The position numbers and the translations under genes are program-made. The notes beneath the pieces are model-generated. The model saw only the letters and a program-made list of their open reading frames with translations. It made no database searches and was not told the DNA's origin. 62,904 nucleotides of DNA, from assembly GCA_030278895.1 (NCBI GenBank), contig JARXKK010000004.1, forward strand, positions 1-62,904, in the 5' to 3' direction. This document shows positions 6,248 through 45,119 of the stretch, one piece after another; position 1 is the first letter of the stretch; the number at the start of each line of letters is the position of its first letter. Source of the stretch: Acidobacteriota bacterium (GTDB lineage Bacteria > Acidobacteriota > Thermoanaerobaculia > UBA5066).

Positions 6248-8107
6248 GTGCGCCGCCGGGGCCTTCCGCTTCTCCTGCTTCTCTGCACCGCCTTCGCCCT
6301 GAAGGCGGCCCTGCTCGCGCATTTCGACGCCCACCCGCTCCTCCAGCCCGCGGGGGACATGGACAGCGGCGTGTACGCCCGGCTGGCCTGGGACGTCGCG
6401 CACGGCGACGTGCTTCTCCGCGGACCGGGACCCGTACCTTATTTCGTCTCGCCGCTCTACATCTACTTCCTCGCCGCGGTCCATGCGCTCTCGGCGGGCT
6501 CGCTCTTCGCGGCGAAGGTCGTCCAGATCGCCCTCGGGACGGCGGCCGTCGGGCTCGTCTTGCTGACGGCGCGACGGCTCTTCGGCGAACGCGCCGCGCT
6601 CCCGGCGGGAATCCTCTTCGCGCTCACGGGTGTCGTGTCGTTCCACGAGATCCTCATTCTTCAGGCGGCTTTGGACCCGTTCCTCACCGCGCTCGCGATG
6701 TTCCTGCTGGCGGATGCGCTCACTCAGGGGAGTATTTCTTCGAAAGTGAATGGGGCGGTGGGCGCCGGGCGCTGGCTCGCCGCGGGTGGGGCGTTTGGTC
6801 TTCTCGCTCTCAACAGGCCCAATGCTCTCTTGTGCGTCGCGGCGGTTGCGGCAGCGCTTCTCCTCTTCACCTTCGAAGAAAATCTTCTCCGAAGGGTTGG
6901 TGTCGCTACGGCATTTCTCGCGGGCGCGGCGCTGACGATCGCGCCGGTCACTCTCCGAAACCTCGCGGTCTCTCACGAGTTCGTCCTGATCTCCTCGCAC
7001 GGCGGCCTGAACTTCCTCGTCGGCAACGGACCCGGCGCGAACGGGGTCTACCGCGCGCTCCCCGGGATCACGCCGGACATCGCCGGGCAGGCAGCCGACA
7101 CGAAGCGCGTCGCCGAGGCGGCCGAAGGGCGCGCGCTGTCCACACGGGAAGTTTCCTCGCACTTCGCGCGACAGGCCTGGGACTGGATCGAGCGAAACCC
7201 GGCGGACGCCACTCGTCTCTTTCTAAGAAAGATTCATCTTCTTCTTTCCGGCGACGAGGCACCTCTCAATTTCAGCTTCCCGTGGTACCGCGAAAAGAGC
7301 CTCGTGCTGCGGCTGCTGTGCGTCGGGCCCGGCCTCCTCGTGCCGCTCGCGGGCGCGGGATTCTTCCTCGCGCTCTTCGCGTCCGCGGGCGCGGCGCGCC
7401 GGACGCTCCTCGTCTGGTCCGTCTTCGTCCCCTCATACGTTTTCGCGGTCGCACTCTTCTTCGTCGCGACGCGCTACCGCCTCCCGCTCCTCGTGGCGCT
7501 CGCGCCGCTTGCCGGCGCCGCGGTCGCGCAGCTTCCGGAAGCCTTGCGGGCGAAAAGCGCCCGCCTCGGGATCGCCGCTGCTGCCGCCGCTGTCCTCGCG
7601 GCGGTCTCGCTCCGGCCGACGGGCCTCTGGGACGGCGCGGAGGACGAGGACATGCACTGGGCGCTCTACCTCGTCGAGAAGGGTGAAGCAGCAGAAGCCG
7701 CCCGCGTCGCCGAGGCCGCGGCGTCACGGCATCCCGATCCGGGGCTGATGTGGTTCCGGATGGGACAGGCATGGGCCGCGGCGAAGCGCATGGACGACGC
7801 GATCGCGGCGCTCGAGCGGGCCCGAGCGCTCGACCCGCATCCTCCCGCGACGGAGCCGGCGCTCGCGGCCGCGCACGAGAGCAGGGGCGTGGACCGGATC
7901 CTCGGGAACGACGCGCTCGCGGCCCTGCCCGACTTCGAGGCCGCCGTCGCGCTCTCGCCCGACGACGCGGGAATGCTCCTGAACCTCGCGGCCGTCCTCG
8001 CGGAGAAGGGCGATCGCGTGCGCGCCCGGGACCTGGCCCGGAAGTCCCTCGCGCTCCGGCCCGGCTACGGGAAGGCCGAGGCGCTGCTCCGGGCTCTCCC
8101 GAAATGA
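6248..8107 (+). CDS. GT39/ArnT-like membrane glycosyltransferase with C-terminal TPR repeats
   Basis: Multi-pass N-terminal domain followed by TPR-like repeats (MWFRMGQAWAAAKRMDDAIAALERARALDP..., LAEKGDRVRARDLARKSLALRPGY). Confidence 0.65.
   Translation: MRRRGLPLLLLLCTAFALKAALLAHFDAHPLLQPAGDMDSGVYARLAWDVAHGDVLLRGPGPVPYFVSPLYIYFLAAVHALSAGSLFAAKVVQIALGTAAVGLVLLTARRLFGERAALPAGILFALTGVVSFHEILILQAALDPFLTALAMFLLADALTQGSISSKVNGAVGAGRWLAAGGAFGLLALNRPNALLCVAAVAAALLLFTFEENLLRRVGVATAFLAGAALTIAPVTLRNLAVSHEFVLISSHGGLNFLVGNGPGANGVYRALPGITPDIAGQAADTKRVAEAAEGRALSTREVSSHFARQAWDWIERNPADATRLFLRKIHLLLSGDEAPLNFSFPWYREKSLVLRLLCVGPGLLVPLAGAGFFLALFASAGAARRTLLVWSVFVPSYVFAVALFFVATRYRLPLLVALAPLAGAAVAQLPEALRAKSARLGIAAAAAAVLAAVSLRPTGLWDGAEDEDMHWALYLVEKGEAAEAARVAEAAASRHPDPGLMWFRMGQAWAAAKRMDDAIAALERARALDPHPPATEPALAAAHESRGVDRILGNDALAALPDFEAAVALSPDDAGMLLNLAAVLAEKGDRVRARDLARKSLALRPGYGKAEALLRALPK
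6734..6755 (+). repeat. AT-box copy K (TTCGAA variant)
   Basis: ATTTCTTCGAAAGTGAATGGGG in the GT39 gene. The codon is TCG where the consensus would give an in-frame TAG. Confidence 0.7.
6863..6890 (-). repeat. AT-box copy J (TTCGAA variant)
   Basis: The plus strand reads CTCTTCACCTTCGAAGAAAATCTTCTCC in the GT39 gene. The codon is GAA where the consensus would give an in-frame TAA. Confidence 0.85.
7217..7244 (-). repeat. AT-box copy H
   Basis: The plus strand reads CTCTTTCTAAGAAAGATTCATCTTCTTC in the GT39 gene (read as LFLRKIHLLL). Confidence 0.7.
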
Positions 8108-11077: not shown

Positions 11078-12517
11078 GTGAACGACTCCACGCGAATCCT
11101 CAACGGGACGTACGAACTGCTGGGCAAGGTGCGCGCGGGCGGCATGGGGGCCGTCTGGAAGGCGCGCCACGTGAAGCTCGGGACGACGTGCGTCGTGAAG
11201 CTGCTTCACGATTCGCTCATCGACGATCCCTCCGCGCAGGAGCGCTTCAAGCGCGAGGCCCAGACCGCGTTGAAAGTGCATCACCCGAACGTCGTGCGCT
11301 TCTTCGACTACGCGATGGAGGCCGACGGCACGGCGGTGCTCGTCATGGAGTACATCCCGGGAGTCGACGTTTCGGAGCTCATGAAGTCCACGGGGCGGCC
11401 GCCGCTGCCCGTGGCGCTCGAGATCGCGCGGCAGACGCTCGCGGCGCTCGGCGCCCTCCACGCGATGGGGATCGTCCATCGCGACGTCTCGCCGGACAAC
11501 CTCATGCTCACGGTCGACAAGGACGGCGCGCTCCTCGTGAAGCTCGTCGACCTCGGCCTCGCGAAGGAGATGGACCAGAAGAGCCTGACCGAGACCGGCA
11601 TGTTCATGGGCAAGCTCAAGTACGGCTCGCCCGAGCAGCTCGGCCCCGGCCGGAAGGCGGGGATCGACCTCAGGAGCGACATATACGGGCTCTCGGTCGT
11701 GCTCTATCAGATCCTGACCGGGACGCCGCCCTTCGAGGCGGACACGCCCGGCGGCTGGGTCTATGCGCACCTGTCCGAATCGCCGCGGCCGTTCGCCGAG
11801 ACCGATCCGCAGGAGCGCATTCCCGGGGACGTCCGCGCCGCCGTGATGCGCGGCCTCGAAAAGGACCGTGCCCTGCGGTTTCAGACCGCGGCGGAATACG
11901 CGAAGGCGCTCGAGCCTGCGCGAAAACGGCTCGGAGCCGCCGGTCTCGCAGAGACGATCGGCACGATCCGCACGCTCCGCGAGGCCCGGCACGCGCGCTC
12001 GCTCGAGAGCGGCCGCTTCGGGTCCCGCGGCCCGGGCGATGCGTCTTCGCATTCGGTGCACGGGACGCCGGGGTCCGCCCGGCGCCGTTGGTGGCGTGTC
12101 GCTGCCGGTGCGGCGGTGGCGGTGGTCCTCGTCTCGGTGCTCCTCCGGTCGCGGCGCGAGGATCCGCGACCGACGCAACCCGCGCCGTCCGGCGTACCCG
12201 GCATGCCCGTCTTGTCCGCGACGGCGGCAGGGGCGCCGGTGCCCGGCGTGGCGAAGGGCGGAATTTCGTTCGTCGCGCTCCCGAACGCCGACATTCGCGT
12301 CTTTGCCGCCGGGACGTCGGGAGAGGTTCCTCTCCCCGGGCGCACGACACCGCTCTACGTCGCGGTGGCGCCGGGTATCTACCGCGTCGAGCTGACGTTC
12401 CCGGGCTCGCGGGCGGCCTCCCGAGACGTGACCGTGGAGGCGGGGCGCTCGATCGCGGTGCACGTCGAGGATCCGAAGTTCGACGTGGAGAAGCTCGTGG
12501 CTGCCTATGTGCCGTAA
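11078..12517 (+). CDS. Ser/Thr protein kinase with a transmembrane segment and a C-terminal PEGA-like domain
   Basis: Hanks motifs are present: GAGGMGAVWKA, VVKLL, HRDVSPDNLM, DLGLAK, SPEQ. A TM helix (WWRVAAGAAVAVVLVSVLL) is followed by a PEGA-like beta domain (IRVFAAG...GIYRVELTFPG). Confidence 0.85.
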   Translation: MNDSTRILNGTYELLGKVRAGGMGAVWKARHVKLGTTCVVKLLHDSLIDDPSAQERFKREAQTALKVHHPNVVRFFDYAMEADGTAVLVMEYIPGVDVSELMKSTGRPPLPVALEIARQTLAALGALHAMGIVHRDVSPDNLMLTVDKDGALLVKLVDLGLAKEMDQKSLTETGMFMGKLKYGSPEQLGPGRKAGIDLRSDIYGLSVVLYQILTGTPPFEADTPGGWVYAHLSESPRPFAETDPQERIPGDVRAAVMRGLEKDRALRFQTAAEYAKALEPARKRLGAAGLAETIGTIRTLREARHARSLESGRFGSRGPGDASSHSVHGTPGSARRRWWRVAAGAAVAVVLVSVLLRSRREDPRPTQPAPSGVPGMPVLSATAAGAPVPGVAKGGISFVALPNADIRVFAAGTSGEVPLPGRTTPLYVAVAPGIYRVELTFPGSRAASRDVTVEAGRSIAVHVEDPKFDVEKLVAAYVP

Positions 12518-19347: not shown

Positions 19348-19593
19348 GTGATGGAGAATGAGCGCATGAAGGATCCGGTCCAGCGCTACGCGAAAGGCCC
19401 TCTCTCCGTGACGTTCGACCCGCGCGTGTGCACCCACTCCGCCGTGTGCGTGCGCGGTCTTTACGACGTCTTCGACGTGTCGAAGAAGCCGTGGGTGAAT
19501 CTCGACGGCGCATCCGCCGAGCGGGTCGTCGAGCAGGTGAAGCGCTGCCCTTCGGGCGCGCTGCAGTTCACGGTCGAGGCTTCGAAGGGCTGA
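19348..19593 (+). CDS. YjdI-like small (4Fe-4S)-binding protein (divergent mono-cluster ferredoxin fold)
   Basis: VTFDPRVCTHSAVCVRGLYDVFDVSKKPWVNLDGASAERVVEQVKRCPSGALQF matches the YjdI/Fer4_19 pattern C-x4-C...CPSGAL. Confidence 0.65.
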   Translation: MMENERMKDPVQRYAKGPLSVTFDPRVCTHSAVCVRGLYDVFDVSKKPWVNLDGASAERVVEQVKRCPSGALQFTVEASKG

Positions 19594-20314
19594 CGCCAAG
19601 CCCGCGCCGGAGCGCGGCGAGCGCCCCGAGAAGAAGCATCACCTCGCGGGCGGTGGGCTTTCCACGGCGCAGGAACGACTCGATCTCGAAGATGACCTCT
19701 TTCGAGCGGCCCCGGCCCGGGTAACCGGCGGAGGAGAGAACTTCTTTGAAAGAGAGGAGAAGACGCCGGACTTCCTTCGAGCCGGCCATCTGCTCTTCGG
19801 GTTTTGGCGTTCCGCGGCTTCGCCGCGGTGCTTTGAAGGGTGAAAGAGGGGACAGAAAGGCCAGCGCGATCGCGACGGACTGCGCGAGATTGAGCGTCGG
19901 AAAGGCGTCGGCGGTCGCGATGCGGAGGCGGGCGTCGCACGCCCGGAGCTCTTCCGTCGTCAGTCCGCCGCGTTCCGGCCCGAACACGAGGGTGACGCGC
20001 CTTCCGGCGCGAAGAGCACCGGAGATTTCTTTGAAGGTGGTAGACGGCGGCAGTCCTCGCGAGACGCGGCCCCGCATCGCGCTCATGGCCACCAGCGTGT
20101 CGGTTCCGTCGAGAAGGTCGCTCCACGCCGGGAGGACACGCACCTTTCTAAGCAAATCCTCGGCTCCCGATGCGAAGGAGATTGCATCGGGGTGTGCCGG
20201 CTCGGTGCGCGGTCCGAGCAAAGAAATCTCCGCCCCGAAATTCTTCGCGGCGCGCGCCGCCGCCCCGATGTTGCCCGGGTTGTGCGTCCGGACGAGAACG
20301 ATGCGCAGGGCCAT
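19568..20314 (-). CDS. trmJ: tRNA (cytidine/uridine-2'-O)-methyltransferase, SpoU/TrmH class
   Basis: MALRIVLVRTHNPGNIGAAARAAKNFG...LVFGPERGGLTTEEL...LNLAQSVAIALA, collinear with TrmJ. True ATG at 20314-20312. Confidence 0.8.
   Translation of the reverse strand: MALRIVLVRTHNPGNIGAAARAAKNFGAEISLLGPRTEPAHPDAISFASGAEDLLRKVRVLPAWSDLLDGTDTLVAMSAMRGRVSRGLPPSTTFKEISGALRAGRRVTLVFGPERGGLTTEELRACDARLRIATADAFPTLNLAQSVAIALAFLSPLSPFKAPRRSRGTPKPEEQMAGSKEVRRLLLSFKEVLSSAGYPGRGRSKEVIFEIESFLRRGKPTAREVMLLLGALAALRRGLGVSPSKPRP
20141..20161 (-). repeat. AT-box copy N
   Basis: The plus strand reads CACCTTTCTAAGCAAATCCTC. trmJ reads it as E-D-L-L-R-K-V (GAT TTG CTT AGA AAG GTG). Confidence 0.7.
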
Positions 20315-20345
20315 GGCGAGGCGATCCTGGTCCAGAATGGCGCGT

Positions 20346-24387: not shown

Positions 24388-25824
24388 ATGCCGGTTCCCG
24401 CCACCGCCTCCGCCCTCGCCGCTGGGGTGCTCACCGGCCGCGTGCCCGATGTCGCGCGCGCGATTTCGTGGGCTGAAAGCGGCGACACCCGTTTTCCAGA
24501 GCTCCTCACGCGCATCTTTCCGCGCACGGGGCGCGCCCGCGTCACCGGGCTCACGGGCTCGCCCGGGGCGGGAAAGTCGACGCTCACGGCGGCCCTCGCG
24601 CGCCGCGCCCGTGCGCGGGGCCGGAGGGTCGGAATCGTCGCGGTCGACCCGTCGTCGCCATTCTCGGGCGGCGCGATCCTCGGCGACCGCATCCGGATGC
24701 AGGACCTCTACACGGACCCCGGCGTCCTCATTCGCTCGATGGCGACCCGCGGGCATCTCGGGGGCCTCGCACGAGCTTCGGCCGACGCCGTGGACGTCCT
24801 CGACGCGGCGGGGTTCGATGAAATTCTCGTCGAGACGGTCGGCGTCGGGCAGGACGAGGTGGAGGTCTTCCGCCTTGCCCAGTCGTGCGTCGTCGTCCTC
24901 ACGCCGGGAATGGGCGACGACATCCAGGCCATCAAGGCGGGTCTCATGGAGGTCGCCGACCTCTTCGTCGTGAACAAGGCGGACCGCGACGGCGCCGACC
25001 GCGTCGTGCAGGAGATCCTGCAGATGCTCGAGCTCGGAGAGCACGGCGCGTGGGTTCCGCCGATCATCAAGACAGTCGCGACGACGGGCGCGGGTCTCGA
25101 CGAGCTGGAGGCAAAGCTCGAAGAGCACCGGGAATTCCTGCTCGGACCCGAGGGCGGGCGGAGAAAGCGCGAGCGGACGAGGATGCGGATCGAGGGGCTC
25201 GTCAGAGAAGATTTTCTTAGAAGGGTAAAGAGCCTCGGGGGTGACCAGGGCGCGCTCGACGAAGCGGCAAGCCGCGTGGAAGCACGCCAGGAGGATCCGC
25301 TGGCCGCCGCCCGCGGCCTGCTCGGCCGTATCGACCACGGCGCCGCCGGAGCGGCCGAATCCCCCCCTTCACCTTCTAAGAAATCTTCGTCTTTTCCGAA
25401 ACCAGAGAATTCTCTTGTCTCTTGCATCTCCCATCTCGGCATCTCCGTCGCGTCCCTCGAAAAGGGCGGAGCCTTTTGGGATCTCCTCGGCCTCGTCGAG
25501 GAGCACCGCGAGGAGGTCGCGTCGCAGCAGGTCATGGCGTCGTTCCGGGCCGTGGGGGAGTCGCACCTCGAGCTCCTCGAATCCACGTCGCCCGACGGCC
25601 CGATCGCGAAGTCGATCGAAAAGCGCGGGCCCGGGGTCCATCACTTGTGTCTCGAGGTGACGGACGTGCGCGCCGCCCTCGCGCGGCTCAAGGCGGCGGG
25701 AGTCCGGCTCGTGAACGAGGAACCGTTCGACGGCGCGCACGATTGCCTCGTCGCGTTCGTCCACCCGTCCGCGACAGGCGGCATCCTCCTCGAATTGTCG
25801 GAGAAGAAGACGAAAGAGGGCTGA
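24388..25824 (+). CDS. meaB: MeaB/ArgK-type G3E GTPase fused to methylmalonyl-CoA epimerase (VOC/glyoxalase fold)
   Basis: The N-terminal ~310 aa carry LTGSPGAGKSTL, AVDPSSPFSGGAILGDRIRM, ETVGVGQDE and NKADRDG. A low-complexity linker (ESPPSPSKKSSSFPKPENS) follows. Then ISHLGISVASLE...GPGVHHLCLEVTDV...AFVHPSATGGILLELSE (MCE). Confidence 0.8.
   Translation: MPVPATASALAAGVLTGRVPDVARAISWAESGDTRFPELLTRIFPRTGRARVTGLTGSPGAGKSTLTAALARRARARGRRVGIVAVDPSSPFSGGAILGDRIRMQDLYTDPGVLIRSMATRGHLGGLARASADAVDVLDAAGFDEILVETVGVGQDEVEVFRLAQSCVVVLTPGMGDDIQAIKAGLMEVADLFVVNKADRDGADRVVQEILQMLELGEHGAWVPPIIKTVATTGAGLDELEAKLEEHREFLLGPEGGRRKRERTRMRIEGLVREDFLRRVKSLGGDQGALDEAASRVEARQEDPLAAARGLLGRIDHGAAGAAESPPSPSKKSSSFPKPENSLVSCISHLGISVASLEKGGAFWDLLGLVEEHREEVASQQVMASFRAVGESHLELLESTSPDGPIAKSIEKRGPGVHHLCLEVTDVRAALARLKAAGVRLVNEEPFDGAHDCLVAFVHPSATGGILLELSEKKTKEG
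25207..25232 (+). repeat. AT-box copy C
   Basis: GAAGATTTTCTTAGAAGGGTAAAGAG in meaB (R-E-D-F-L-R-R-V-K-S). Confidence 0.85.
25366..25397 (-). repeat. AT-box copy F
   Basis: The plus strand reads CCTTCACCTTCTAAGAAATCTTCGTCTTTTCC and forms the MeaB-epimerase linker (SPSKKSSSFP). Confidence 0.85.
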
Positions 25825-25833
25825 CCGGCCCGG

Positions 25834-25856: not shown

Positions 25857-26116
25857 CCATGAAAGTTGGCGCATCCATGAAGCGCACGACCGTCATGCTT
25901 CCCGCCGATCTTCGGCGCCGCGCGTTCCGCCGCGCGAAGGAGCAGGGCGTGTCGTTCGGGGTGGTGGTTCGCGATTCGCTGGACGCGGCGCTACCCGCCC
26001 TGGAGGGTGTGACCGGGGACGACTCGCTGTTCGCGGACGGCGCCGTCTGGCTCGGCCGTGTCCCGCGAGCCCTCGCCCGCGAACACGACCGCTTCCTTTA
26101 CGACTCCGAGCCGTGA
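25850..26116 (+). CDS. vapB: ribbon-helix-helix antitoxin (VapB/CopG-like)
   Basis: ...MKRTTVMLPADLRRRAFRRAKEQGVSFGVVVRDSLD is an RHH N-terminus. Start is ambiguous (25850, 25859 or 25877). GTGA overlap with the PIN gene. Confidence 0.65.
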   Translation: MSAMKVGASMKRTTVMLPADLRRRAFRRAKEQGVSFGVVVRDSLDAALPALEGVTGDDSLFADGAVWLGRVPRALAREHDRFLYDSEP

Positions 26117-26544
26117 TCTTCGTCGACACGGGGGCGTTCCTGGCGCGATACGTCGAGGGCGACCAGTACCACCGGGCCGCTGTCCGCGCATGGAAACGGC
26201 TCGAGCGCTCCCCGGGGGCGCTCTTCACGTCCAGCTTCGTCGTGGACGAGACGCTCACGCTTCTCGGGCGGCGGACGACGTATGCGTTCGCGGCCGCGCG
26301 AGCGGATGCGCTCTATGCGTCGCGCGTGCTGACGATTCTCCGGCCGGACGCGGCGGACGAGTCGACCGCGCTCGATTTCTTCCGGAAGTTCGCCGACCAG
26401 AAAGTGAGCTTCACCGATTGCGTGTCGTTCGCGCTCATGCGCCGCCACAAGCTGAAGAGGGCCTTCGCGTTCGACCGCCACTTCGCGGGCGCGGGCTTCG
26501 AGGTCTGGCCGGCTCTTGGTTCCGACTCCCGGTCAGGGCGGTGA
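26113..26544 (+). CDS. vapC: PIN-domain toxin (VapC family)
   Basis: MIFVDTGAFLARYVEGDQYH...VVDETLTLL...SFTDCVSFALM...AFAFDRHF carries the four acidic PIN positions. Confidence 0.8.
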   Translation: MIFVDTGAFLARYVEGDQYHRAAVRAWKRLERSPGALFTSSFVVDETLTLLGRRTTYAFAAARADALYASRVLTILRPDAADESTALDFFRKFADQKVSFTDCVSFALMRRHKLKRAFAFDRHFAGAGFEVWPALGSDSRSGR

Positions 26545-27030: not shown

Positions 27031-29412
27031 ATGCGATCACGTCTCCTACTCTGCCTAGTCATCTTTTGTCTTGCTTCTCCGGCTTTCGCTGAAGAATACG
27101 TGACAATCCGAAAAGTAACCGCCTCCCATTATGACGCTCTGAACTCATCCGAACTCGCGGCACTAGAGCAACACGGTATCGTGGTGAGAGAAGATTACGG
27201 GCCCTTCGCCTTGGGCACGAGAGCTACCACAACCGACGTCGCGGCGGCCAGCCGGGCTTCGGGGCTCCTCGTCATCAGCGAGCCTTCTTTCAATAAGCTC
27301 TCGGTTGGTGGCGTCGAGATCGATACCCGACCAGGCGCTCCTTCCGTGCCGGGCATAGCCCCGACACTTCGGCTCGCCGATTATCCGGTTGGCGGGGATG
27401 GGCTCTACCTCATTCAGCTCGCAGGACCTCCACGTCCAGCTTGGCTAAGTGAGCTTTCGTCGGCCGGACTCACTACCCTGCGATATGTGGAAACGAACGG
27501 CTACCTCGTGCGAGCCCCCGCGGGCCTTCGTGCGTTGAAGGAGCGGTTGTCATCGGTTGTAAAATTCATCGCGCCGTACGAACCGTTTGAAAAGCTGTCT
27601 CCTGAACTTCGTTCCGTCACGTCAGGTGAGGTGCAGATTTTGGTTGTGTGGGATTCGACCGAAACTCTCGCGTCGGCAGCTTCCAAGGTCCTCGCCCTCG
27701 ACCCGAGCGCTCGGTTAGTACCATCGAGTCGCGAATCATACGCGGTACTCAAGGCGAACCCCTCTCAGTTTGGAGCCCTCGCGGCCGATGCGCACGTGCT
27801 GTCGATGGAGATCCCTCATGAAGGAGGGCCCTCCGATGAGCGTACCGCGCAGATCGCCATCGGGAACATCAGCGGCGATGGCGCCTCGGGAACCGGATAC
27901 ATGGACGCTCTTGAGACCGCGTGCTCTTCGTGCTTCCACGACATGTCGTCGGAGGTGGTCGATGTCGTCGATTCGGGTCTTTACGCTCATCCCGACCTCA
28001 GTGGCGGAGTCCCGGGCCGTCTGACATACGCAAGCGCCTTCATGGGCGTCACAGGTGGTACCGTCGATCAGTACTTTCACGGCACCTTCGTGACCGGTTT
28101 GATCGCGGGCAATCCATTCCAAGCGAACGGCACCCACAATGCGGGAGACGGCGGTTTCGCCTGGGGGCTCGGCGTCGCGCCCACGGTGCACTTCATGAAC
28201 TCGCGGATCTTCGATAATCAGGGGCACTTTGTACGGGCGCCCACGCCAGCAGACGTCGATACGCTTTCGGCAAATGCGTTCAATCACGTCGCGATGGTAC
28301 AGAACAACAGTTGGAATGTCTGCGACACGACATACACGACACTCAGTCGCGCATACGACATTCATGTCCGCGACGCGCTCAATAGTCCAGCTCAATCCCG
28401 CAACCCTTTGAGTATCGTCTTCTCGAGCGGGAACATGGGTAATTGCGACCCGGCTTCGGCACCCGTGACTGCGCCGGCAAACGCCAAGAACGTCATTACG
28501 GTCGGCGCCTCGTCGTTCATGCGACCGGCACTCGTTGGAAATTGCGATACAACCCACGGTGTAAGGGACGTGTCCGACTTTAGCAGGCGTGGTATTGCTG
28601 CGGCCGCCGGGCGGTTCAAACCGGACCTCGTGGCGGCGTCAACGAGTTCGACATCTGCGGTGTCAAGTCCCTACGTTCCCGCCGGTTGCGGTGGTGCAAA
28701 CTTGATCGATGCGAACTACTACGCCGACAACGGCACGAGCTTCAGCGCACCTCTCGTAACAGGCGCGACGGTCTTGCTAAAAAGGCGGATTGGTGGCACG
28801 CCGTCGCCCGCTTTGACGAAGGCTGTCCTGCTGGGGTCGGCGGCGTCGATGAACGGAGGCGTCGACCAGTTCACATTGAACACGTTGGGGTGGGAGCCGG
28901 CAAGTCCGCAGGGATTTGGCCGACTGAACGTCCAGGCGATCGTGAGCGACGCGACCCCGGCGCGGTATGTGGACGAAGACACTTCTCCCGCGCCGATACG
29001 CCGGTTCACCGCTAGTGGTCAATATTACGAGCAGACTCTTAATATCGCCGACGTAAATCTCCCAGTGATCATTGTTCTCGCGTATTCGGATGCGCCGTCG
29101 ATGGAAAACTCTGTTGGGAACGCTGTCAACATCCTGAACATGGCGGTCTATAATGGCTCGGGTTGGAGCTGGAATGACGGAAATACCGGGTCCCAGTTTG
29201 CGCCCCCGTGCATTGGTGGCCTAACAGAGGGCTGCTATCTGCACGATACGGTCAACAACGTGAAATGGATCAAGATCGCACCAAACTCCGTTTACCCGTC
29301 CTTCACCATACAGGTCGTGGCTTCCTCACTCGCCGCGAAGGCGGTACCCGAACTTGACTCCGGCGCGAGCGTCAACCAGGACTGGGCGATGTATGTCTAC
29401 AATGCGTATTAG
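27031..29412 (+). CDS. secreted subtilisin-like serine protease (peptidase S8)
   Basis: Signal peptide MRSRLLLCLVIFCLASPAFA. Catalytic triad contexts are VVDVVDSGL (Asp), HGTFVTGLIAGN (His) and NGTSFSAPLVTGA (Ser). The gene is clearly AT-richer than its flanks. Confidence 0.85.
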   Translation: MRSRLLLCLVIFCLASPAFAEEYVTIRKVTASHYDALNSSELAALEQHGIVVREDYGPFALGTRATTTDVAAASRASGLLVISEPSFNKLSVGGVEIDTRPGAPSVPGIAPTLRLADYPVGGDGLYLIQLAGPPRPAWLSELSSAGLTTLRYVETNGYLVRAPAGLRALKERLSSVVKFIAPYEPFEKLSPELRSVTSGEVQILVVWDSTETLASAASKVLALDPSARLVPSSRESYAVLKANPSQFGALAADAHVLSMEIPHEGGPSDERTAQIAIGNISGDGASGTGYMDALETACSSCFHDMSSEVVDVVDSGLYAHPDLSGGVPGRLTYASAFMGVTGGTVDQYFHGTFVTGLIAGNPFQANGTHNAGDGGFAWGLGVAPTVHFMNSRIFDNQGHFVRAPTPADVDTLSANAFNHVAMVQNNSWNVCDTTYTTLSRAYDIHVRDALNSPAQSRNPLSIVFSSGNMGNCDPASAPVTAPANAKNVITVGASSFMRPALVGNCDTTHGVRDVSDFSRRGIAAAAGRFKPDLVAASTSSTSAVSSPYVPAGCGGANLIDANYYADNGTSFSAPLVTGATVLLKRRIGGTPSPALTKAVLLGSAASMNGGVDQFTLNTLGWEPASPQGFGRLNVQAIVSDATPARYVDEDTSPAPIRRFTASGQYYEQTLNIADVNLPVIIVLAYSDAPSMENSVGNAVNILNMAVYNGSGWSWNDGNTGSQFAPPCIGGLTEGCYLHDTVNNVKWIKIAPNSVYPSFTIQVVASSLAAKAVPELDSGASVNQDWAMYVYNAY

Positions 29413-30332: not shown

Positions 30333-30668
30333 CTAGTTCGGGCTGCCGGAGTCGCCCGCGGGAAGGCGAGGCCCGAGAAAAGCGCGGGCGTCGCATCCCA
30401 CGATCTCGTAGAAGCGCTCGGAGTAGCTCGCGACGCTGCCGACGCGCGCGTCTTCGAAGAGCTTCTCGACGCGGTGCAGCGGCACGAAGAGCGTGGAGAC
30501 GCCCAGCTCGGCTTCGGCTCCCGGCCTCTGTTGCCGGGCCCAGTTGTCGAAGAGGTCGAGCTCGAGGCCGCGCAGCGTCACCCCGGCGGGCCCGAGCGCA
30601 AGGAGGACTCCCCAATACTTCTCCTTGGGCTGGACGAGATGCACGAGGACGAGAGTGCCGGCGTCCAT
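30333..30668 (-). CDS. small conserved-looking hypothetical protein (111 aa)
   Basis: Clean ORF with genome-typical codon usage, 7 nt downstream of the preceding same-strand gene. Confidence 0.45.
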   Translation of the reverse strand: MDAGTLVLVHLVQPKEKYWGVLLALGPAGVTLRGLELDLFDNWARQQRPGAEAELGVSTLFVPLHRVEKLFEDARVGSVASYSERFYEIVGCDARAFLGPRLPAGDSGSPN

Positions 30669-30675
30669 CGGCTCC

Positions 30676-31464: not shown

Positions 31465-31554
31465 GCGGACCTCCGGGAGCCGCCGGCGAGGATGTGGCGG
31501 CAGAATGAAGTATAAACGTCGCCGGAAAGACAGCGTGAAAGAGCAGGCCGAATC

Positions 31555-34546: not shown

Positions 34547-34565
34547 CGCGTAAGATCCGGCGCCA

Positions 34566-35798: not shown

Positions 35799-35819
35799 GG
35801 CCGGCGTAAACTGCGCGGT

Positions 35820-36749
35820 GTGAGCACACCTGCGGAGAGGCCGCTTCCTCTCGTCTTCCCGTTCCCCGGCCGCAGCGTGACGGTGGACCAGGTCGCGCTC
35901 GAGGAGCGCTCGGCCGCGCTCGGGAAACGCTCGCTCAAGAAGGCGACGAAGGTCGCCGGAATCCGCCTCGCGATCTCGATGTGCGACCTCACGACGCTGG
36001 AGGGCAAGGACTCGCCGGGGAAGATCCGGCAGATGTGCGCGAAGGCGGTCCGGCCCGATCCGGAGGATCTCTCGGTGCCGTCCGTGGCCGCGGTGTGCGT
36101 CTATCCGGATCTCGTCGGCATCGCCAAGCGCGCGCTTTCGGGCTCGACCGTGAAAGTCGCGAGCGTCGCCACGGCGTTCCCGTCCGGCCGCTCACCGCTG
36201 TCCCTGAAGATCACGGACGTCAGGCGCGCGGTTTCGGCGGGTGCGGACGAGATCGACATGGTGATCGACCGCGGCGCGTTCCTCGCGGGCGACCTCCGGA
36301 AGGTGTTCGACGAGATCGCGGCCGTCAAGGAAACCTGCGGCACGGCTCACCTCAAGGTCATCCTCGAGACGGGCGAGCTCGAGACTTACGACAACGTCCG
36401 CCGCGCCTCGGATCTCGCGATCGCGGCCGGCGCCGACTTCATCAAGACGTCCACCGGCAAGGTGGCGCCCGCGGCGACGCCGCCCGTGACGCTCTGCATG
36501 CTCGAGGCGATCCGCGACCACTGGTTCGCGACGGGCGTGAAGATCGGGATGAAGCCCGCGGGCGGCATCCGCACGAGCAAGCAGGCGCTCCACTACCTCG
36601 TGATCGTCAAGGAGACGCTCGGTTCGGACTGGCTCACGCCGGACCTCTTCCGGTTCGGGGCGTCGAGCCTCGTCAACGACTGCCTCATGCAGCTTCGGAA
36701 GGAAGAAACGGGGCGGTATCGCTCGGAAGAAGAATTCACGAAAGACTGA
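35820..36749 (+). CDS. deoC: deoxyribose-phosphate aldolase (long, DERA-like form)
   Basis: DLTTLEG, VCVYP, VATAFPSG, DMVI, KVILETGEL and FIKTSTGK (Schiff-base Lys context). Confidence 0.85.
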   Translation: MSTPAERPLPLVFPFPGRSVTVDQVALEERSAALGKRSLKKATKVAGIRLAISMCDLTTLEGKDSPGKIRQMCAKAVRPDPEDLSVPSVAAVCVYPDLVGIAKRALSGSTVKVASVATAFPSGRSPLSLKITDVRRAVSAGADEIDMVIDRGAFLAGDLRKVFDEIAAVKETCGTAHLKVILETGELETYDNVRRASDLAIAAGADFIKTSTGKVAPAATPPVTLCMLEAIRDHWFATGVKIGMKPAGGIRTSKQALHYLVIVKETLGSDWLTPDLFRFGASSLVNDCLMQLRKEETGRYRSEEEFTKD

Positions 36750-36763: not shown

Positions 36764-36790
36764 GAAGATTTTGCTTAGAAAGGGAAGAGG
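36764..36790 (+). repeat. AT-box copy B (long form)
   Basis: GAAGATTTTGCTTAGAAAGGGAAGAGG lies between deoC and the ALDH (or in the ALDH 5' end). A second degenerate tandem copy precedes it (36726-36755). Over about 55 nt it is closely similar to copy A. Confidence 0.8.
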
Positions 36791-39792: not shown

Positions 39793-42495
39793 TCACTTCA
39801 GATGCTCTCCCGTTGCCGGCCAGTTCAGGACCACCACGGCCGGCTGTTCCTGCCGTTCGTCGGCGGTCGCGAGCACCAGAAAACGATTTCCGTCCGGGGC
39901 CGGGATGTACTGGGACCGGTTGTCGGAGATCCCGTTGGCGGGCACGCGGATCGGAAAGAGTGACTTCGGCGCTCCCACCTGCGCGTCTTCGCCCCCCAGG
40001 GACAGCTCGACGGACATGAGCTTGCGGTCGTTCGAGAGGAAATAAAGCTCTTTCCCGTCCGCGCGCCAGAGAGCCTGGTCGCCGCCGTCTTTCGAGATCT
40101 GCCACTTCCCCCCCGAAGGCGGAAACCTCTGCACATAGACCTCCGCGCGGCCCGTCTCGTCCGAGGAGTAAGCGAAGAACTTCCCGTCCGGCGACGAAGA
40201 GGCATGAGCGGCCGCCGCCTGAGGCACGGCCAGGAGAAGCTGAGCCTTCCGTTCGCCCGAGAGCGGAAGCCTCCAGAGCTCGGGGCGGCCGACACTGCTC
40301 ATCGTCTCGAAGACCAGCCACGCCCCGTCCGGGGAAATGAAGTCGCCGTAGTTGTCGAGGGTCGTGGCGAGGAGCGATTCGTCCCCTCCCGTTCCGTCGA
40401 GGGGCCGGCGGAAGAGGCCCATTCGGCTCGCGCGGTTCGATGAGAAATAGAGGTTCTTTCCGTCCGGCGACGCCATCCCGGTGTTGTTGGCCTTGGGCCC
40501 GAACGTGAGCCGCGTCCACGTGCCGCGCGTCAGGTCGACCTGCCAGAGGTCCTGAAGTTCGGTCCGCGGGTCCGCCACGGTGATGCCGAGGCGTTGCCCG
40601 CCCGCGAACCAGAACGGTTCCGACAGGATGGCGGCGTCCCCGACGGTTCCGAGCGGCTTGCCTGAACGGTCGAACCAGGTAAGTTTCTGGCGGGGGTTCG
40701 CACGACGCCTGTAGACGAGGGCGCCGTCGGCCGCCGCAGAGAAGGCCGCAAGGCCCGTCCACCCGCTCTCGCCCTCGACGGCGATTCCGTCGATGACGAG
40801 TCCGGGCTCGCCGGACAATTTGCGCCGTCCCGCGTCGAACGGCTGCGCATAGAGCGCACTCTCGCGGACGTAGAGGAGGCGGCCCGCGTCGTACTCCGCC
40901 TTCCCGCGGGTCGAGACGACGAAGGCGTCGTCTCCCGAGTCGAGAGAAGCCACGCGCGTGCCGAGGCGGGCCGGGTCGTCGCTTAAGCAGAGGTAGAGAA
41001 AATGGTTCCCGTCGGGCAGGATCTTCGGCCAGCGGTGCGTGTAGTCCTTCGGACCGAACTTCGTCACGGGTGCCGGGACCCCGCCCGAGGCGCTCACGCG
41101 ATGGAGCGGCAAGCGGGTTCCGGGCGCGAAGACGATGACGCCCCGGGGGAGCCACGTGCCGCCCCGCCCGTCGGTGATCGGGCAGATCGTCTGGGGCGGG
41201 CCACCAGCCACGCTGATGCGCGCAAGACGGTCGCCCGTGAAGTATGCGATGGCGGTGCCGTCCGGCGACCAGAAGGGAAAACGCGCGCCTTCCGTTCCGG
41301 GCAGGAGCTGGACGGCGACGGAATCGAACGAGCGCACGTAGAGCCGCTCGATGTCCTTCTCGTCGGTTGCGACGAACGCAAGCCGCCGGCCGTCGGGCGA
41401 GAGCGCCACCGAGCTGCCGAACGACGCCCCCTCGGGGACGCGCACCTCGAACTGGACGACGGGCGCGCGCGGGGCGCGAGCGCGCATCGCGAGGGCCCCC
41501 GCCGCGGCCGCGCACGCGGCCGCGATCGCCCAGGGGAGAAAGAGGGAGAGGAGATTCTTGCGACTTACAGTGGGGCTTGGCGACGCGGGATTTTCTTCGA
41601 AAGGCAATGGGCCGGAGGAGCTCGACGAGAGGGCGGCGCTCGATTCTTCCAGCTCGAGCCTTGCATCTGCGATGTCGTGGAGGCGCTGCTTGGCGTCCCG
41701 CACCAGACACCTTCTAAGAATCTTTCTTACGGCGGTGGGCGTTTGCTCCGGCAGCGCCGCCCAGTCCGGCTCGCCCCGGAGAATCGCCGCGAGCGTGTCG
41801 CTGACCGTCTCGCCTTCGAATGCTTTCTTTCCCGTCAGCATCTCGAAGAGGACGCATCCGAACGCCCAGACGTCCGTGCGCTTGTCGACCGGCTTTCCCC
41901 GTGCCTGCTCGGGCGACATGTACGCCGCCGTCCCGAGGATCATTCCCGCCGCGGTGCCCCGAGCCGTCAGCGTCGGCGAATACGAGATCGAGGGGGAGGA
42001 GGCGCCCGCCTCGTTCTCGAAGATCTTCGCGAGGCCGAAGTCGAGGAGCTTCACCCGGCCCTCGTGCGTCACCCTGACGTTCGCGGGCTTGAGGTCGCGG
42101 TGGACGATGCCCTTCTCGTGCGCCGCCTCCAGCGCCTCGGCGATCTGACGGGCCAGGAAGAGGGATTCTTCGAGTGGAAGAGGGCCGGAAGAGATTTTCT
42201 GCGCAAGGTCTTCACCTTCGACCAGCTCCATGACGAGGAGGTGTCTCCCCCCACTTTCTTCGAAGGAATAGATCGCGGCGATTCCGGGATGATTGAGCGC
42301 TGCGAGTAATCGTGCTTCCCTCTCGAATCGCGTTCTTCTCTCTTCCCCTTCGAAGAACTCTTCCGGCAGTACCTTGATCGCGACCTCTCTCGCGAGGCGC
42401 GGGTCTTTCGCCCGATACACCTCTCCCATCCCGCCCGCACCGAGCGCGGAGAGGATTTCGTAAGGTCCGACGCGCGTGCCTGAGGCCAGCGTCAC
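39793..42495 (-). CDS. Ser/Thr protein kinase with TM segment and C-terminal TolB-like (PD40) beta-propeller (K1)
   Basis: GAGGMGEVYRAKD, AIKVL, HRDLKPANV, DFGLAK and SPEQ, then PD40-type repeats (SPDG..LAF...). The GTG start at 42495 overlaps the K2 stop (GTGA). Confidence 0.85.
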   Translation of the reverse strand: MTLASGTRVGPYEILSALGAGGMGEVYRAKDPRLAREVAIKVLPEEFFEGEERRTRFEREARLLAALNHPGIAAIYSFEESGGRHLLVMELVEGEDLAQKISSGPLPLEESLFLARQIAEALEAAHEKGIVHRDLKPANVRVTHEGRVKLLDFGLAKIFENEAGASSPSISYSPTLTARGTAAGMILGTAAYMSPEQARGKPVDKRTDVWAFGCVLFEMLTGKKAFEGETVSDTLAAILRGEPDWAALPEQTPTAVRKILRRCLVRDAKQRLHDIADARLELEESSAALSSSSSGPLPFEENPASPSPTVSRKNLLSLFLPWAIAAACAAAAGALAMRARAPRAPVVQFEVRVPEGASFGSSVALSPDGRRLAFVATDEKDIERLYVRSFDSVAVQLLPGTEGARFPFWSPDGTAIAYFTGDRLARISVAGGPPQTICPITDGRGGTWLPRGVIVFAPGTRLPLHRVSASGGVPAPVTKFGPKDYTHRWPKILPDGNHFLYLCLSDDPARLGTRVASLDSGDDAFVVSTRGKAEYDAGRLLYVRESALYAQPFDAGRRKLSGEPGLVIDGIAVEGESGWTGLAAFSAAADGALVYRRRANPRQKLTWFDRSGKPLGTVGDAAILSEPFWFAGGQRLGITVADPRTELQDLWQVDLTRGTWTRLTFGPKANNTGMASPDGKNLYFSSNRASRMGLFRRPLDGTGGDESLLATTLDNYGDFISPDGAWLVFETMSSVGRPELWRLPLSGERKAQLLLAVPQAAAAHASSSPDGKFFAYSSDETGRAEVYVQRFPPSGGKWQISKDGGDQALWRADGKELYFLSNDRKLMSVELSLGGEDAQVGAPKSLFPIRVPANGISDNRSQYIPAPDGNRFLVLATADERQEQPAVVVLNWPATGEHLK
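41589..41611 (+). repeat. AT-box copy P (TTCGAA variant)
   Basis: GATTTTCTTCGAAAGGCAATGGG in K1 (gene strand reads PLPFEENP). The TTCGAA change avoids an in-frame TAA. Confidence 0.75.
41708..41728 (-). repeat. AT-box copy G
   Basis: The plus strand reads CACCTTCTAAGAATCTTTCTT. K1 reads it as R-K-I-L-R-R-C (AGA AAG ATT CTT AGA AGG TGT). Confidence 0.8.
42163..42184 (+). repeat. AT-box copy O (GC-adapted)
   Basis: GGATTCTTCGAGTGGAAGAGGG in the K1 kinase domain. Two further degenerate copies follow at 42188-42223. Confidence 0.5.
42252..42271 (+). repeat. AT-box copy L1 (TTCGAA variant)
   Basis: CACTTTCTTCGAAGGAATAG in K1 (gene strand reads YSFEES). The change avoids an in-frame TAA. Confidence 0.7.
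42338..42364 (-). repeat. AT-box copy L2
   Basis: The plus strand reads CTCTCTTCCCCTTCGAAGAACTCTTCC in K1 (gene strand reads EEFFEGEER). Confidence 0.7.
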
Positions 42496-45119
42496 CTGAA
42501 TGTGCCCACCCAGATGTCGCTCTCGGTCACGTTTCGGAGGAAGTAGAGGGAGCGTCCGTCGCGCGAGAGCGCAATGCGCTGGACCGTGCCTTCCGCCGCC
42601 GGGAGGACGAGACGCGACTGGCGGGCCGCGAGGTCGAGGACGCGGATGCCGTCGGGCGTCGTCAGGACGGCACGTCGCCCGTCCGGCGCAAACCTGGCGA
42701 CGTACGCACGGACGCCGAGTCCTTCGCATGCATTTTTCGAGGGCGTGCAGAGGCGCGCCTCGAGGGCCAGCTCGCCTCCGGGACCCGCGGCGAGAAGGCG
42801 CGCGCCGTCGAACGACCAGCTCCAGGCCCAGCGCGACTCGAGATCGGCGACCGGAGCGCTCACCGAGAGAGAGCCGCCGGTACCCGTGACGAGCGGAAAC
42901 ACCGCCACGCGCGCGTCGAACGAGGCCGCGGCGAAGAAACGCCCGTCCGGGGAAAGAGCGGGGTAGAGGTAGAACATGGACTTCGGCGGCGTGAGCCGAG
43001 AGAGGCCGCTGCCGTCGACCGCGATCGAGTAGCCGCCGTAGTCCCCGTCCCGGTTCGAGTAGAAGGCGAGACGCTTGCCGTCCGCCGTGAAGGCTGGCCC
43101 GCGGTTTCGGAACTCGTCGTGGGTGAGCCGGCGGAGCTTCTGGCCATCCGTGGAGACGAGGCAGAGGTCCTCGAGTCGTCCCACCGTGCGCGTCGCGAGC
43201 GTGGTTCCGTCAGGTGAGATCTCGAGGTCCTCGAAGGCGGTGGAGCTTCGCCTGAGGACGACCGGCGGCCCGATGGGATTGAGCGTGCCGGGATCGAGCG
43301 CGAGCTTCTCGATCGTCATGAGTTCGGCGGGAGAGGTGAAGGCGATCCGCTTCCCGTTCCGCGACCCGCGGAACGAGCCGGGGAAGGTCCCGGCCCACGT
43401 GATCGGCACCGTCACGGGCTCGGGCGCGCCCCGCGTGGCGCCCGTAGCCTCGTCTATAGGGACGCGCCAGAGATTGAAACTTCCGCCGCGGTCGCTCCCG
43501 AAGTAGAGGAACGCCCCGTCGGCGGACCAGAACGGGCTGAAGTCCACCGCGGTGTCGTTCGTCACCGGGACGGGCTTCTCGCCCTCCTTGAGGCCCGCGA
43601 GCGGCACCGTCCAGATGTCGCGCTGCGCCGTATCGCCGACGAGGCCCCAGAACGCGACGCGCTTCCCGTGCGGGGAAACGGCGGGCTCGACCGCGTCCGG
43701 GCCATAAAGCATCCGCTTCTTCCCGGTTGCGACCTCGACGGCCCAGATCTTCGCGCGCGTGCCGCGCGCGAGCGGTGACAGCGCAGCCTCCTCCGCGTAG
43801 ACGATCTCCTTGCCGTCGGGCGTGAAGTCGGGGCCGTAGCCCGTGTCCGTCACGCGGCGCACGGACTCGCCGAGCGGGCCCATGACGAAGATGCCGCCGC
43901 CGTCCTTGCCCGAACGGAACGCGATGAGCGAGCCGTCCGGCGAGTAGACGGGGTCGAACCGGTCGTCCTCCGGGGAATCCGCCGAGAGGTCGATGGGCTT
44001 GTCGCTGCCGACGCGCTGGACGATGACGTGCCGGCGCCCCGAGACGGCCTTCATGTAGGCGACGGTCTCGCCGTCGGGCGAGAGAGCCGGCGACCGCTCG
44101 ATGCCGGGATCCGACGAGAGCCGCTCGAAGAGCAGGGTCGGCGGCGGCGCGGACGTGCGGCCGTGCCGCCCCGCGAAGAATCCTGCGACGAGGAGCGCGG
44201 TTGCGGCCGCGGCCAGGAGCGCGCGCCGCTTCACGAGGCGCGAGGGTGCGACGCCCGGCGCGACGGCGGCGCGCGCGGCGGAGTCCGCCGAGAGGCTCTC
44301 GAGCGCGAATGCGAGGTCGCCCGCGGACTGGAAGCGCTGCTCGGGGCTCTTCTCGAGGCAGCGGCGCACGATGCGCTCGAGGCCGGGCGGGACGCTCTGG
44401 TTCGTGACGGAGAGGTCGGCGGGTTCCTCGCGGAGGATCGCCGTGATGACGTCCGCGCTGGAATCTCCCCCGAATGCCTTCTTCCCCGAGAGCATCTCGT
44501 AAAGGACGGCGCCGAACGCGAAGAGGTCGCTGCGTTGGTCGGCGGGCCGGCCCCGCACCTGCTCGGGGGCCATGTAACCCATCGTCCCGAGGACCATGCC
44601 CGGCTCCGTGCCGCGCGCCGCGGTCGGCAGGTTCGAGCCGGAGCTCGCGGCCGAATCTTCCGTGAGCTTCGCGAGACCGAAGTCGAGGATCTTGATGCGC
44701 CCGTCCTTCGTGACGAAGAGGTTTTCGGGCTTCAGGTCGCGGTGCACGATGCCCTTTTCGTGAGCGGCCGAGAGTCCGCGCGCGATCTGGATCGACCAGT
44801 CGACCGCCTTGCGGAGCGGGAGCTTCCCTGCGGCGATCGCCTGACGCAGCGTCTCGCCCTCGAGCAGCTCCATGACGAGGATGTGACGGGCCGCGGAGGA
44901 GGAAGGCAAAGAGGGGATTTCTTCGAAGGAATAGATGGCGGCAATTCCCGGATGATTGAGGCTCGCAAGGAGGCGAGCTTCCCTCTCGAACCGCTGCCTT
45001 CTCTCTTCACCTTCAAAGAATTCTTCCGGCAGTACCTTGATCGCGACCTCTCTCGCGAGGCGCGGGTCTTTCGCCCGGTAGACCTCTCCCATCCCGCCCG
45101 CGCCGAGGGCAGAGATCAC
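42492..45119 (-). CDS. Ser/Thr protein kinase with TM segment and C-terminal TolB-like beta-propeller (K2)
   Basis: Same architecture as K1. The conserved N-terminus LAIATGTRLGPYEV continues in frame up to 45158, where only a CTG aligns with the K1 GTG start. 45119 is the first canonical start. Confidence 0.8.
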   Translation of the reverse strand: MISALGAGGMGEVYRAKDPRLAREVAIKVLPEEFFEGEERRQRFEREARLLASLNHPGIAAIYSFEEIPSLPSSSAARHILVMELLEGETLRQAIAAGKLPLRKAVDWSIQIARGLSAAHEKGIVHRDLKPENLFVTKDGRIKILDFGLAKLTEDSAASSGSNLPTAARGTEPGMVLGTMGYMAPEQVRGRPADQRSDLFAFGAVLYEMLSGKKAFGGDSSADVITAILREEPADLSVTNQSVPPGLERIVRRCLEKSPEQRFQSAGDLAFALESLSADSAARAAVAPGVAPSRLVKRRALLAAAATALLVAGFFAGRHGRTSAPPPTLLFERLSSDPGIERSPALSPDGETVAYMKAVSGRRHVIVQRVGSDKPIDLSADSPEDDRFDPVYSPDGSLIAFRSGKDGGGIFVMGPLGESVRRVTDTGYGPDFTPDGKEIVYAEEAALSPLARGTRAKIWAVEVATGKKRMLYGPDAVEPAVSPHGKRVAFWGLVGDTAQRDIWTVPLAGLKEGEKPVPVTNDTAVDFSPFWSADGAFLYFGSDRGGSFNLWRVPIDEATGATRGAPEPVTVPITWAGTFPGSFRGSRNGKRIAFTSPAELMTIEKLALDPGTLNPIGPPVVLRRSSTAFEDLEISPDGTTLATRTVGRLEDLCLVSTDGQKLRRLTHDEFRNRGPAFTADGKRLAFYSNRDGDYGGYSIAVDGSGLSRLTPPKSMFYLYPALSPDGRFFAAASFDARVAVFPLVTGTGGSLSVSAPVADLESRWAWSWSFDGARLLAAGPGGELALEARLCTPSKNACEGLGVRAYVARFAPDGRRAVLTTPDGIRVLDLAARQSRLVLPAAEGTVQRIALSRDGRSLYFLRNVTESDIWVGTFR
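44916..44934 (+). repeat. AT-box copy M1 (TTCGAA variant)
   Basis: GATTTCTTCGAAGGAATAG in K2 (gene strand reads YSFEEI). The change avoids an in-frame TAA. Confidence 0.7.
45001..45027 (-). repeat. AT-box copy M2
   Basis: The plus strand reads CTCTCTTCACCTTCAAAGAATTCTTCC in K2 (gene strand reads EEFFEGEER). Confidence 0.7.

Follow-up and report, generated by a model that had tools for sequence, protein, structure and literature searches.

A DNA word in convergent pairs is conserved in genes and spacers alike in Thermoanaerobaculia

We describe a short DNA word that recurs through a 62,904-nucleotide stretch of an Acidobacteriota genome (class Thermoanaerobaculia; contig JARXKK010000004.1, positions 1 to 62,904), hereafter the window. 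Its copies tend to face each other in pairs, which we call doublets, each made of a left and a right arm. We find that the word is constrained as DNA whatever it encodes, and that genes adapt to it through rare codons and conservative residues. We favor, with about even confidence, the reading that each arm is a putative binding site in duplex DNA for one sequence-specific protein, the two arms acting together. Positions 3-5906 of the window are syntenic, at 82% identity, with a related locus (L081) of the Thermoanaerobaculia metagenome-assembled genome (MAG) Co_metawrap_1695. It follows that the window is a natural piece of Thermoanaerobaculia chromosome.

The word and its paired arrangement

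Alignment of the copies defines an asymmetric word of ~24 nt, (G)AAGATT-TTCTT[A/C/T]GAA-GGTGAAGAG, in which a purine-rich tract is followed by ATT-TTCTT[A>C>T]GAA-GGTGAAGAGGG. A 24-nt position matrix built from the aligned copies and run over the window gave 22 matches where shuffles gave 0.45; of these matches, 19 are strong copies. The 9-mer TTCTAAGAA, allowing at most one mismatch, was matched 27 times against 3.0 expected. Density is thus ~0.3 copies per kb (19 copies in 62.9 kb). The word is AT-rich, as against a genome of 68% GC (65-71% in the window). It occurs on both strands and is readable in all six frames, as well as in intergenic DNA. Within the window, where genes were called by codon likelihood and checked with Pfam, 16 of the 19 copies lie inside genes. 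The copies, together with two tentative partner arms recognized by eye below the matrix threshold, are listed here by extent, strand, core, and setting.

244..267, + strand: copy, core TTCTTAGAA at 250-258; intergenic, upstream of gene 300..1427; 24/24 identical in the L081 ortholog
284..302, - strand: tentative degenerate partner arm of copy 250, catctcaccgTTCTAAcat, by eye; core-to-core distance ~44 nt
3090..3113, + strand: doublet 1, left arm, core 3096-3104; MurQ gene 3041..3898(-), read as EFLSKKN, stop out of frame
3172..3195, - strand: doublet 1, right arm, core 3181-3189; MurQ gene, read as EDFLRR through TTT CTT AGA AGG
6730..6753, + strand: doublet 2, left arm, core 6736-6744 TTCTTCGAA; PMT_2/TPR membrane protein gene 6248..8107(+), stop frame, TCG
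6863..6886, - strand: doublet 2, right arm, core 6872-6880 TTCGAAGAA; gene 6248..8107(+), stop frame, GAA
7212..7235, - strand: apparent solo copy, core 7221-7229; gene 6248..8107(+), CTA AGA, stop out of frame
19736..19759, + strand: copy, core 19742-19750 TTCTTTGAA; C-terminal part of SpoU methylase gene 19568..20341(-) (Pfam E = 7e-25), stop frame, TTC AAA GAA
20021..20044, + strand: doublet 3, left arm, core 20027-20035 TTCTTTGAA; SpoU gene, stop frame, AAA
20137..20160, - strand: doublet 3, right arm, core 20146-20154 TTCTAAGCA; read as EDLLRK
25208..25231, + strand: doublet 4, left arm, core 25214-25222; linker of MeaB-glyoxalase fusion gene 24397..25824(+), read as EDFLRR
25365..25388, - strand: doublet 4, right arm, core 25374-25382; read as PSKK
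36766..36789, + strand: copy, core 36772-36780 TGCTTAGAA; intergenic, upstream of an aldehyde dehydrogenase gene
41587..41610, + strand: doublet 5, left arm, core 41593-41601 TTCTTCGAA; kinase gene 39793..42513(-), stop frame, GAA (PFEEN)
41703..41726, - strand: doublet 5, right arm, core 41712-41720; over the conserved kinase motif KILRRCL, ATT CTT AGA AGG TGT
42250..42273, + strand: doublet 6, left arm, core 42256-42264; stop frame, GAA (YSFEES)
42340..42363, - strand: doublet 6, right arm, core 42349-42357 TTCGAAGAA; harmless frame, C/G, EEFFEGEE directly after VAIK
44913..44936, + strand: doublet 7, left arm, core 44919-44927; paralogous kinase gene 42492..45119(-), stop frame, GAA
45003..45026, - strand: doublet 7, right arm, core 45012-45020 TTCAAAGAA; harmless frame, T/A, TTC TTT GAA
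56502..56525, + strand: copy, core 56508-56516; fills the ~30 bp gap between convergent genes ending at 56498 and 56528
56570..56598, - strand: tentative ghost partner of copy 56508, by eye; in a PKD-domain gene, spacing ~80 nt

The arrangement of neighboring copies is far from random. Across 543 kb of high-GC loci plus the window, neighbors within 400 bp form 67 convergent pairs, with the GGTGAAGAG side inward, against 6-8 pairs in each other orientation. Most core-to-core distances fall in the range 76-185 bp, which is cut off sharply on its lower side near 76. When the partner threshold is relaxed, 77% of strong copies are matched by a convergent partner no more than 250 bp away. Seven doublets lie in the window (3096/3181, 6736/6872, 20027/20146, 25214/25374, 41593/41712, 42256/42349, and 44919/45012). 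Three of its five apparent solos have ghost partners by eye, at ~44, ~80, and ~76 nt. The weakest of these (~76 nt) keeps 6/9 core bases, and the arm at 56570..56598 retains its outer parts (ctcttac...aatcttcg), its core being gone.

What lies between the arms is not shared. Doublet interiors are mutually unrelated even within one genome, the two paralogous kinases being the exception, and interiors within genes are ordinary native coding sequence. Identity between left and right arms is limited to the shared word and falls to background beyond position +19. Hypervariable interiors were considered and ruled out, as interior and outer-flank identity (0.74 vs 0.78) do not differ significantly. 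A second box, (GT)CCGAAGAG, stands 8-28 nt outside the core in 19 of 161 arms (~12%), roughly tenfold above background; examples are at 3196-3215 in the window (minus strand), at L084 2190-2216, and at L066 2946-2975. A longer element of ~45 nt apparently has its outer edge at this box.

The word is widespread in one clade. An exact-pattern scan (TTCTTNGAAGGNGAAGAG) with one genome per species gave at least 118 stretches, and among the matches listed most were Thermoanaerobaculia/Acidobacteriota MAGs, representing at least 23 species-level genomes. Matches in other taxa were single and had no partner copy. A phage origin was rejected, the viral-contig matches being low in GC, chance-like, and devoid of doublets. 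Of 189 clade cores, 111 fall in called genes and 41% are intergenic, and orthologous copies are retained between species of 76-90% identity. Nothing relevant emerged when the literature was searched for the word or for repeats of Thermoanaerobaculia.

Inside genes, the word overrides codon preference. GC at third codon positions is 0.42 in word codons and 0.88 in the remainder of the same genes, and mean relative synonymous frequency is 0.33 in the word versus 0.54 elsewhere. Where the frame reads TCN AAG, 12 of 25 copies have the serine codon TCT (P = 5e-10), which accounts for 4.9% of TCN codons. TTA, which makes up 0.3% of leucine codons, appears in 16 of the 29 copies in its frame, and AGA is preferred over CGA in 6/7. 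Copies are evenly distributed along genes.

Two gene families demonstrate that arms can be written on native codons. Across the whole doublet, the MurQ protein encoded at 3041..3898 (minus strand) can be aligned to solved MurQ structures (PDB 4s12 and 4lzj) with no gap; both arms therefore occupy native codons (EDFLRR and EFLSKKN). Its ortholog in L081 retains GAAGATTTTCTTAGAAGG base for base, with third-codon-position identity at 66%. The kinase arms fall on VAIKVLPEEFFEGEE, IYSFEES, and KILRRCL, colinear with a motif-free kinase in the window. For the xLxRRCL peptide, a related kinase in L105 uses ordinary GC-rich codons, GAG CTG ATG CGC CGG TGC CTC, as against AAG ATT CTT AGA AGG TGT CTG in the window.

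Over 25 orthologous comparisons, identity was higher in the word than in its flanks (0.80 vs 0.72; P = 0.005). Convergence driven by the encoded peptide is ruled out by the six-frame reading and by the 41% of clade cores that are intergenic. The preliminary description of this DNA had proposed that the DNA word takes precedence over what it encodes, a view that the rare codons in the word and its conservation at orthologous positions, intergenic ones included, uphold.

Reading frame and the central base

The preliminary description also proposed a rule: wherever the word's TAA/TAG triplet would fall in frame, one T to G change removes it, and every other copy keeps it. All 15 copies that it listed are present, in the frames it assigned. 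Five changed copies stand in a would-be stop frame, with TCG at 6740-6742 and GAA at 6875-6877 in the plus-strand gene 6248..8107, and GAA at 41596-41598, 42259-42261, and 44922-44924 in the minus-strand kinase genes. The ten copies with TAA or TAG (cores starting at 250, 3096, 3181, 7221, 20146, 25214, 25374, 36772, 41712, and 56508) are all out of frame or intergenic. The contrast of five of five against ten of ten is thus real, but four further copies (19742, 20027, 42349, and 45012) had been missed, and they loosen the rule.

The change is not always T to G: the stop-frame copies at 19742 and 20027 carry T to A (TTC AAA GAA), so that the seven stop-frame copies of the window comprise five with C/G and two with T/A. 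Nor do all permissive copies keep the triplet, which has been lost at 42349 (TTC TTC GAA) and 45012 (TTC TTT GAA). When the window is tabulated by frame, the triplet is kept in 0/7 stop-frame copies versus 10/12 others (Fisher's exact test, P = 7e-4). Part of this contrast is trivial, since no working gene can retain a stop in frame.

With the 189 clade cores, core position 6 can be compared between settings; the bases given here are those of the TAG-bearing strand.

Two stop frames (n = 43): A 0, C 31, T 11, G 1
Other four frames (n = 68): A 37, C 18, T 6, G 7
Intergenic (n = 78): A 43, C 27, T 8, G 0

The contrast by frame (P = 7e-13) is forced by the open reading frames: genes use a base other than A at core position 6 wherever A would give an in-frame TAG or TAA. 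Such stop avoidance is, on its own, expected behavior and not remarkable. More telling is that the stop base is absent from 45% of harmless-frame and intergenic copies taken together. Position 6 is therefore the weakest position of the word (A > C > T). The C/G variant is found with no stop at stake in 27/78 intergenic and 18/68 harmless-frame copies, and stop frames are not depleted of copies (43/111 coding cores). Thus, TTCGAA is an ordinary variant of the word, and the changed base is its least informative position, not a scar of repair.

The suggestion that copies were brought in and then minimally repaired by T to G is accordingly not supported: the codons in MurQ and the kinases are native, the C/G variant is common where there is no stop to repair, and T/A also occurs in stop frames. 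No gene truncated by a copy was seen. In one case only (L066) does the TAG of the word serve as a gene's stop codon.

Proposed protein-binding sites and competing explanations

The arms are independently conserved, departures in one being left unmatched in its partner, and show no RNA signature, yet their orientation and minimum spacing are strict. A mechanism based on protein sites is therefore the most likely. Two bound arms might bridge or synapse a short loop, in the manner of transposon ends, REP/BIME pairs (repetitive extragenic palindromes and bacterial interspersed mosaic elements), or recombinase sites. Selection for a better match, or a transmission drive toward one, would create and maintain the copies. 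They would originate by point substitution in constrained genes and by small insertions in loops and spacers.

Several observations weigh against this reading. No transposase, recombinase, or obvious candidate for a binding protein was found among the ~50 Pfam-scanned genes of the window. The distances between arms are not phased at 10.5 bp, as they might be under a rigid protein bridge; the best period, 12.1 nt, is not significant after ~60 periods scanned. Perfect seeds served to ascertain the related loci. Outside the window we called the genes ourselves by codon likelihood, and these calls are supported by the absence of any in-frame stop at the copies. There are also signs of mobility or instability. 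Of 21 indels of at least 25 nt between syntenic orthologs, 8 touch a copy. In DnaE2, L001 has an in-frame doublet segment of ~170 nt where L113 has a single arm. L089 carries a doublet where L084 has one arm and the far outer flank, and spacing at one site is 185 nt in L030 and 44 nt in L085. From these sequence comparisons, it appears that arms can also come or go with extra DNA at tolerant places.

The DnaE2-type genes belong to two MAGs that are ~92% identical, and their in-frame blocks lie exactly at two word copies, in hypervariable surface loops (L001 300-560 and 2690-2830; L113 1000-1100 and 3300-3360).

The same turnover speaks for a nonautonomous mobile element, similar to a miniature inverted-repeat transposable element (MITE) or to a REPIN (a REP doublet), of which the word would form the terminal inverted repeats. 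It would land in genes in frame, and its copies there would survive only if the stop were mutated. The inverted-terminal architecture and the great excess of doublets over singlets fit this explanation as well. We nevertheless consider it unlikely. Copies do not have related interiors, and no gain in length accompanies the doublets of MurQ and the kinases, whose arms and interiors alike are native and colinear. Sites are retained between orthologs of species with 76-90% identity, and C/G variants are equally common outside genes. No autonomous partner is found between distant arm pairs, where the genes are native (PMT-like, DnaE2, and others), nor among the Pfam-scanned genes of the window.

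REPINs and BIMEs (PMC3116915) resemble the word in that inverted doublets outnumber singlets, singlets look like decayed doublets, orthologous sites persist vertically over long periods, and one lineage has hundreds of copies. However, REPINs lie outside genes and fold, with paired spacers, into hairpins, whereas the word is largely intragenic in the window and its arms show no partner-specific pairing, variable spacing, and native genes as interiors. No RAYT (REP-associated tyrosine transposase, a Y1 transposase) is present among the ~50 window genes. MITEs share the terminal inverted repeats, but a homologous interior is missing here. Set against homologs, the copies resemble insertions in DnaE2 and in L089 versus L084, but clearly not in MurQ and the kinases. 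Rickettsia palindromic elements, reviewed together with in-frame MITEs (PMC10969869), are translated in-frame repeats with inverted ends, and some copies of the word, namely those in the DnaE2 loops, are likewise real in-frame extra segments. Those elements, however, are insertions with family-specific interiors, whereas the interiors of the word are unrelated and its MurQ and kinase copies involve no insertion at all.

Somewhat less likely again is an uptake signal of the type known as uptake signal sequences (USS) in Pasteurellaceae and DNA uptake sequences (DUS) in Neisseriaceae (PMC2817400), for which biased transmission would let mutations toward the word accumulate everywhere, genes included. 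The resemblance is considerable. Like USS and DUS, the word is clade-specific and dense, occurs on both strands, and is of a kind that reaches hundreds to thousands of copies. It has been written into coding sequence by substitution, so that frames and peptides are shaped by it, and it is absent from probably acquired DNA, here the low-GC stretch at 26-30 kb. What USS and DUS lack is any counterpart to the obligatory convergent doublet, with arms at least 76 bp apart (76-185 bp) instead of a single site or a tight terminator pair. In addition, the frames in which USS lie are ones served by preferred codons (PMC2817400), whereas the Thermoanaerobaculia word forces rare ones. That no competence genes were seen in the window is a weak point against the explanation.

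Another parallel, in which the DNA word likewise precedes its coding, is HIP1 of cyanobacteria (GCGATCGC; PMC5861425 and PMC4390886). It too is hyperabundant, falls in several gene frames, and is conserved beyond codon needs, and its function is unexplained after long study. HIP1, however, is a perfect 8-base palindrome linked to methyltransferases, whereas the present word has at least ~24 bases and is asymmetric, AT-rich, and arranged in doublets.

That the doublet acts in RNA, its arms pairing into a long stem that serves as an RNase III site, stabilizer, or terminator, is improbable. Any left arm can indeed pair with any right arm (mean ~-54 kcal/mol), convergent arms yield the same hairpin from either strand, and some intergenic interiors contain GC-rich hairpins. 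Yet true partners pair no better than swapped ones (-54.2 vs -54.5 kcal/mol; permutation P ~0.6), and outer and inner flanks behave alike. RNA pairing that tolerates G-U would predict asymmetry between 5' and 3' arms, but A>G and G>A departures are balanced between them (odds ratio 1.04, P = 0.90; 35 in-gene doublets). Solo copies have no strand bias relative to transcription, copies occur in every kind of intergenic region and evenly along genes, and it is the sequence itself, beyond pairing alone, that is conserved across species.

A hairpin or cruciform element is ruled out by the background level of arm identity beyond the word, the swapped-partner energies, and the lack of wobble asymmetry. 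Scans with Rfam and for tRNAs matched no known RNA family or tRNA. A promoter or terminator role was also rejected: there were 0 promoter-like sites, and terminator-like sites were at shuffle level and not located at copies.

The least probable explanation, to which we give very little credence, is that doublets are invertons, intragenic and intergenic, the 76-185 bp enclosed by the arms being turned around by a recombinase. The lower spacing limit of 76 is near the minimum tolerated by Cre and similar recombinases. The sites are asymmetric and inverted with respect to each other, and intragenic invertons are known (PMC10028968). A flip would, however, bring stops into 20 of the 35 in-gene doublets, MurQ-like housekeeping genes included, and the partners' central bases differ in 3/7 window doublets. 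No recombinase gene is found among the Pfam-scanned genes of the window. A scan of metagenome contigs for the inverted kinase junction matched only an unrelated tgt gene (tRNA-guanine transglycosylase; L119 9332-9357, …GVGSPEDFFEGIERGIDMFDCV…) on an unrelated lower-GC contig, a chance match and not an inversion.

Returning to protein-bound arms, a broader form of that reading can be entertained only tentatively. It would have the chromosome remodeled across the class, with about a thousand head-to-head doublets of a 24-45-nt word, including doublets in enzyme cores (MurQ, IspE-like kinases, and Ser/Thr kinases). The doublets would be the substrate of some DNA-binding machine, for which a domesticated transposase or recombinase is one possibility and a new system of nucleoid organization or self-marking another.

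Gene context and significance

Some of the genes in which copies lie, or near which they lie, are of interest in themselves. The TAA of the tentative arm at 284..302 bounds the reading frame downstream, and the frame of gene 300..1427 opens directly after it (284-345 region). The first ATG/GTG/TTG in this frame is the GTG at 342, and conserved-looking residues (RLVALDVFRG) lie upstream of 342. MurQ belongs to a minus-strand operon at 2106-4845 comprising a BadF/BcrAD-type ATPase, the MurQ etherase, and an amidohydrolase, with stop/start overlaps at 3895-3898 (ATGA) and 3041-3044 (GTGA). This operon probably encodes a pathway for recycling MurNAc and GlcNAc.

Gene 24397..25824(+) encodes a fusion of a MeaB GTPase with a glyoxalase-fold domain (methylmalonyl-CoA epimerase-like), and the doublet 25214/25374 falls exactly in the interdomain linker. 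An 11-kb stretch beyond it (25,400-36,700) has no copy of the word. Its low-GC part (26,000-30,000; segment GC 0.60-0.62) holds genes for a PIN-domain protein (26113..26544) and an S8 subtilase (27031..29412). This copy-free low-GC stretch looks like acquired DNA that has yet to gain the word.

Four Ser/Thr kinase genes occur in the 63 kb. Those at 39793..42513(-) and 42492..45119(-) are tandem paralogs with PD40 beta-propeller tails and have two conserved doublets in common. Those at 11078..12517(+) and 48563..50206(-) are without the word, and one of them is fused to a response-regulator receiver. The copy at 56508 is flanked by genes for an ATP-dependent DNA ligase and a PKD-domain protein, which end at 56498 and 56528, respectively. 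The ligase (55557..56498(+)) is a stand-alone, LigD-like ligase domain ending 10 nt before the copy, and no Ku gene was seen nearby.

For the annotation of Thermoanaerobaculia genomes, these results are of practical use: the word can serve as a lineage marker in contig binning, and gene callers should allow for the recurrent rare-codon islands and stop triplets that fixed words bring. The word provides a clean and quantifiable case in which a DNA signal overrides codon usage, and even the choice of residue, in conserved genes of a little-known and largely uncultured class. If the broader form of our reading is true, the word would be a previously undescribed kind of genome-wide signal, an asymmetric site that occurs in convergent pairs only and is imposed on coding sequence by substitution. 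Should the doublets be protein-binding sites, the protein that reads them would reveal a new genome-wide system for chromosome architecture, self-recognition, recombination, or transmission drive.

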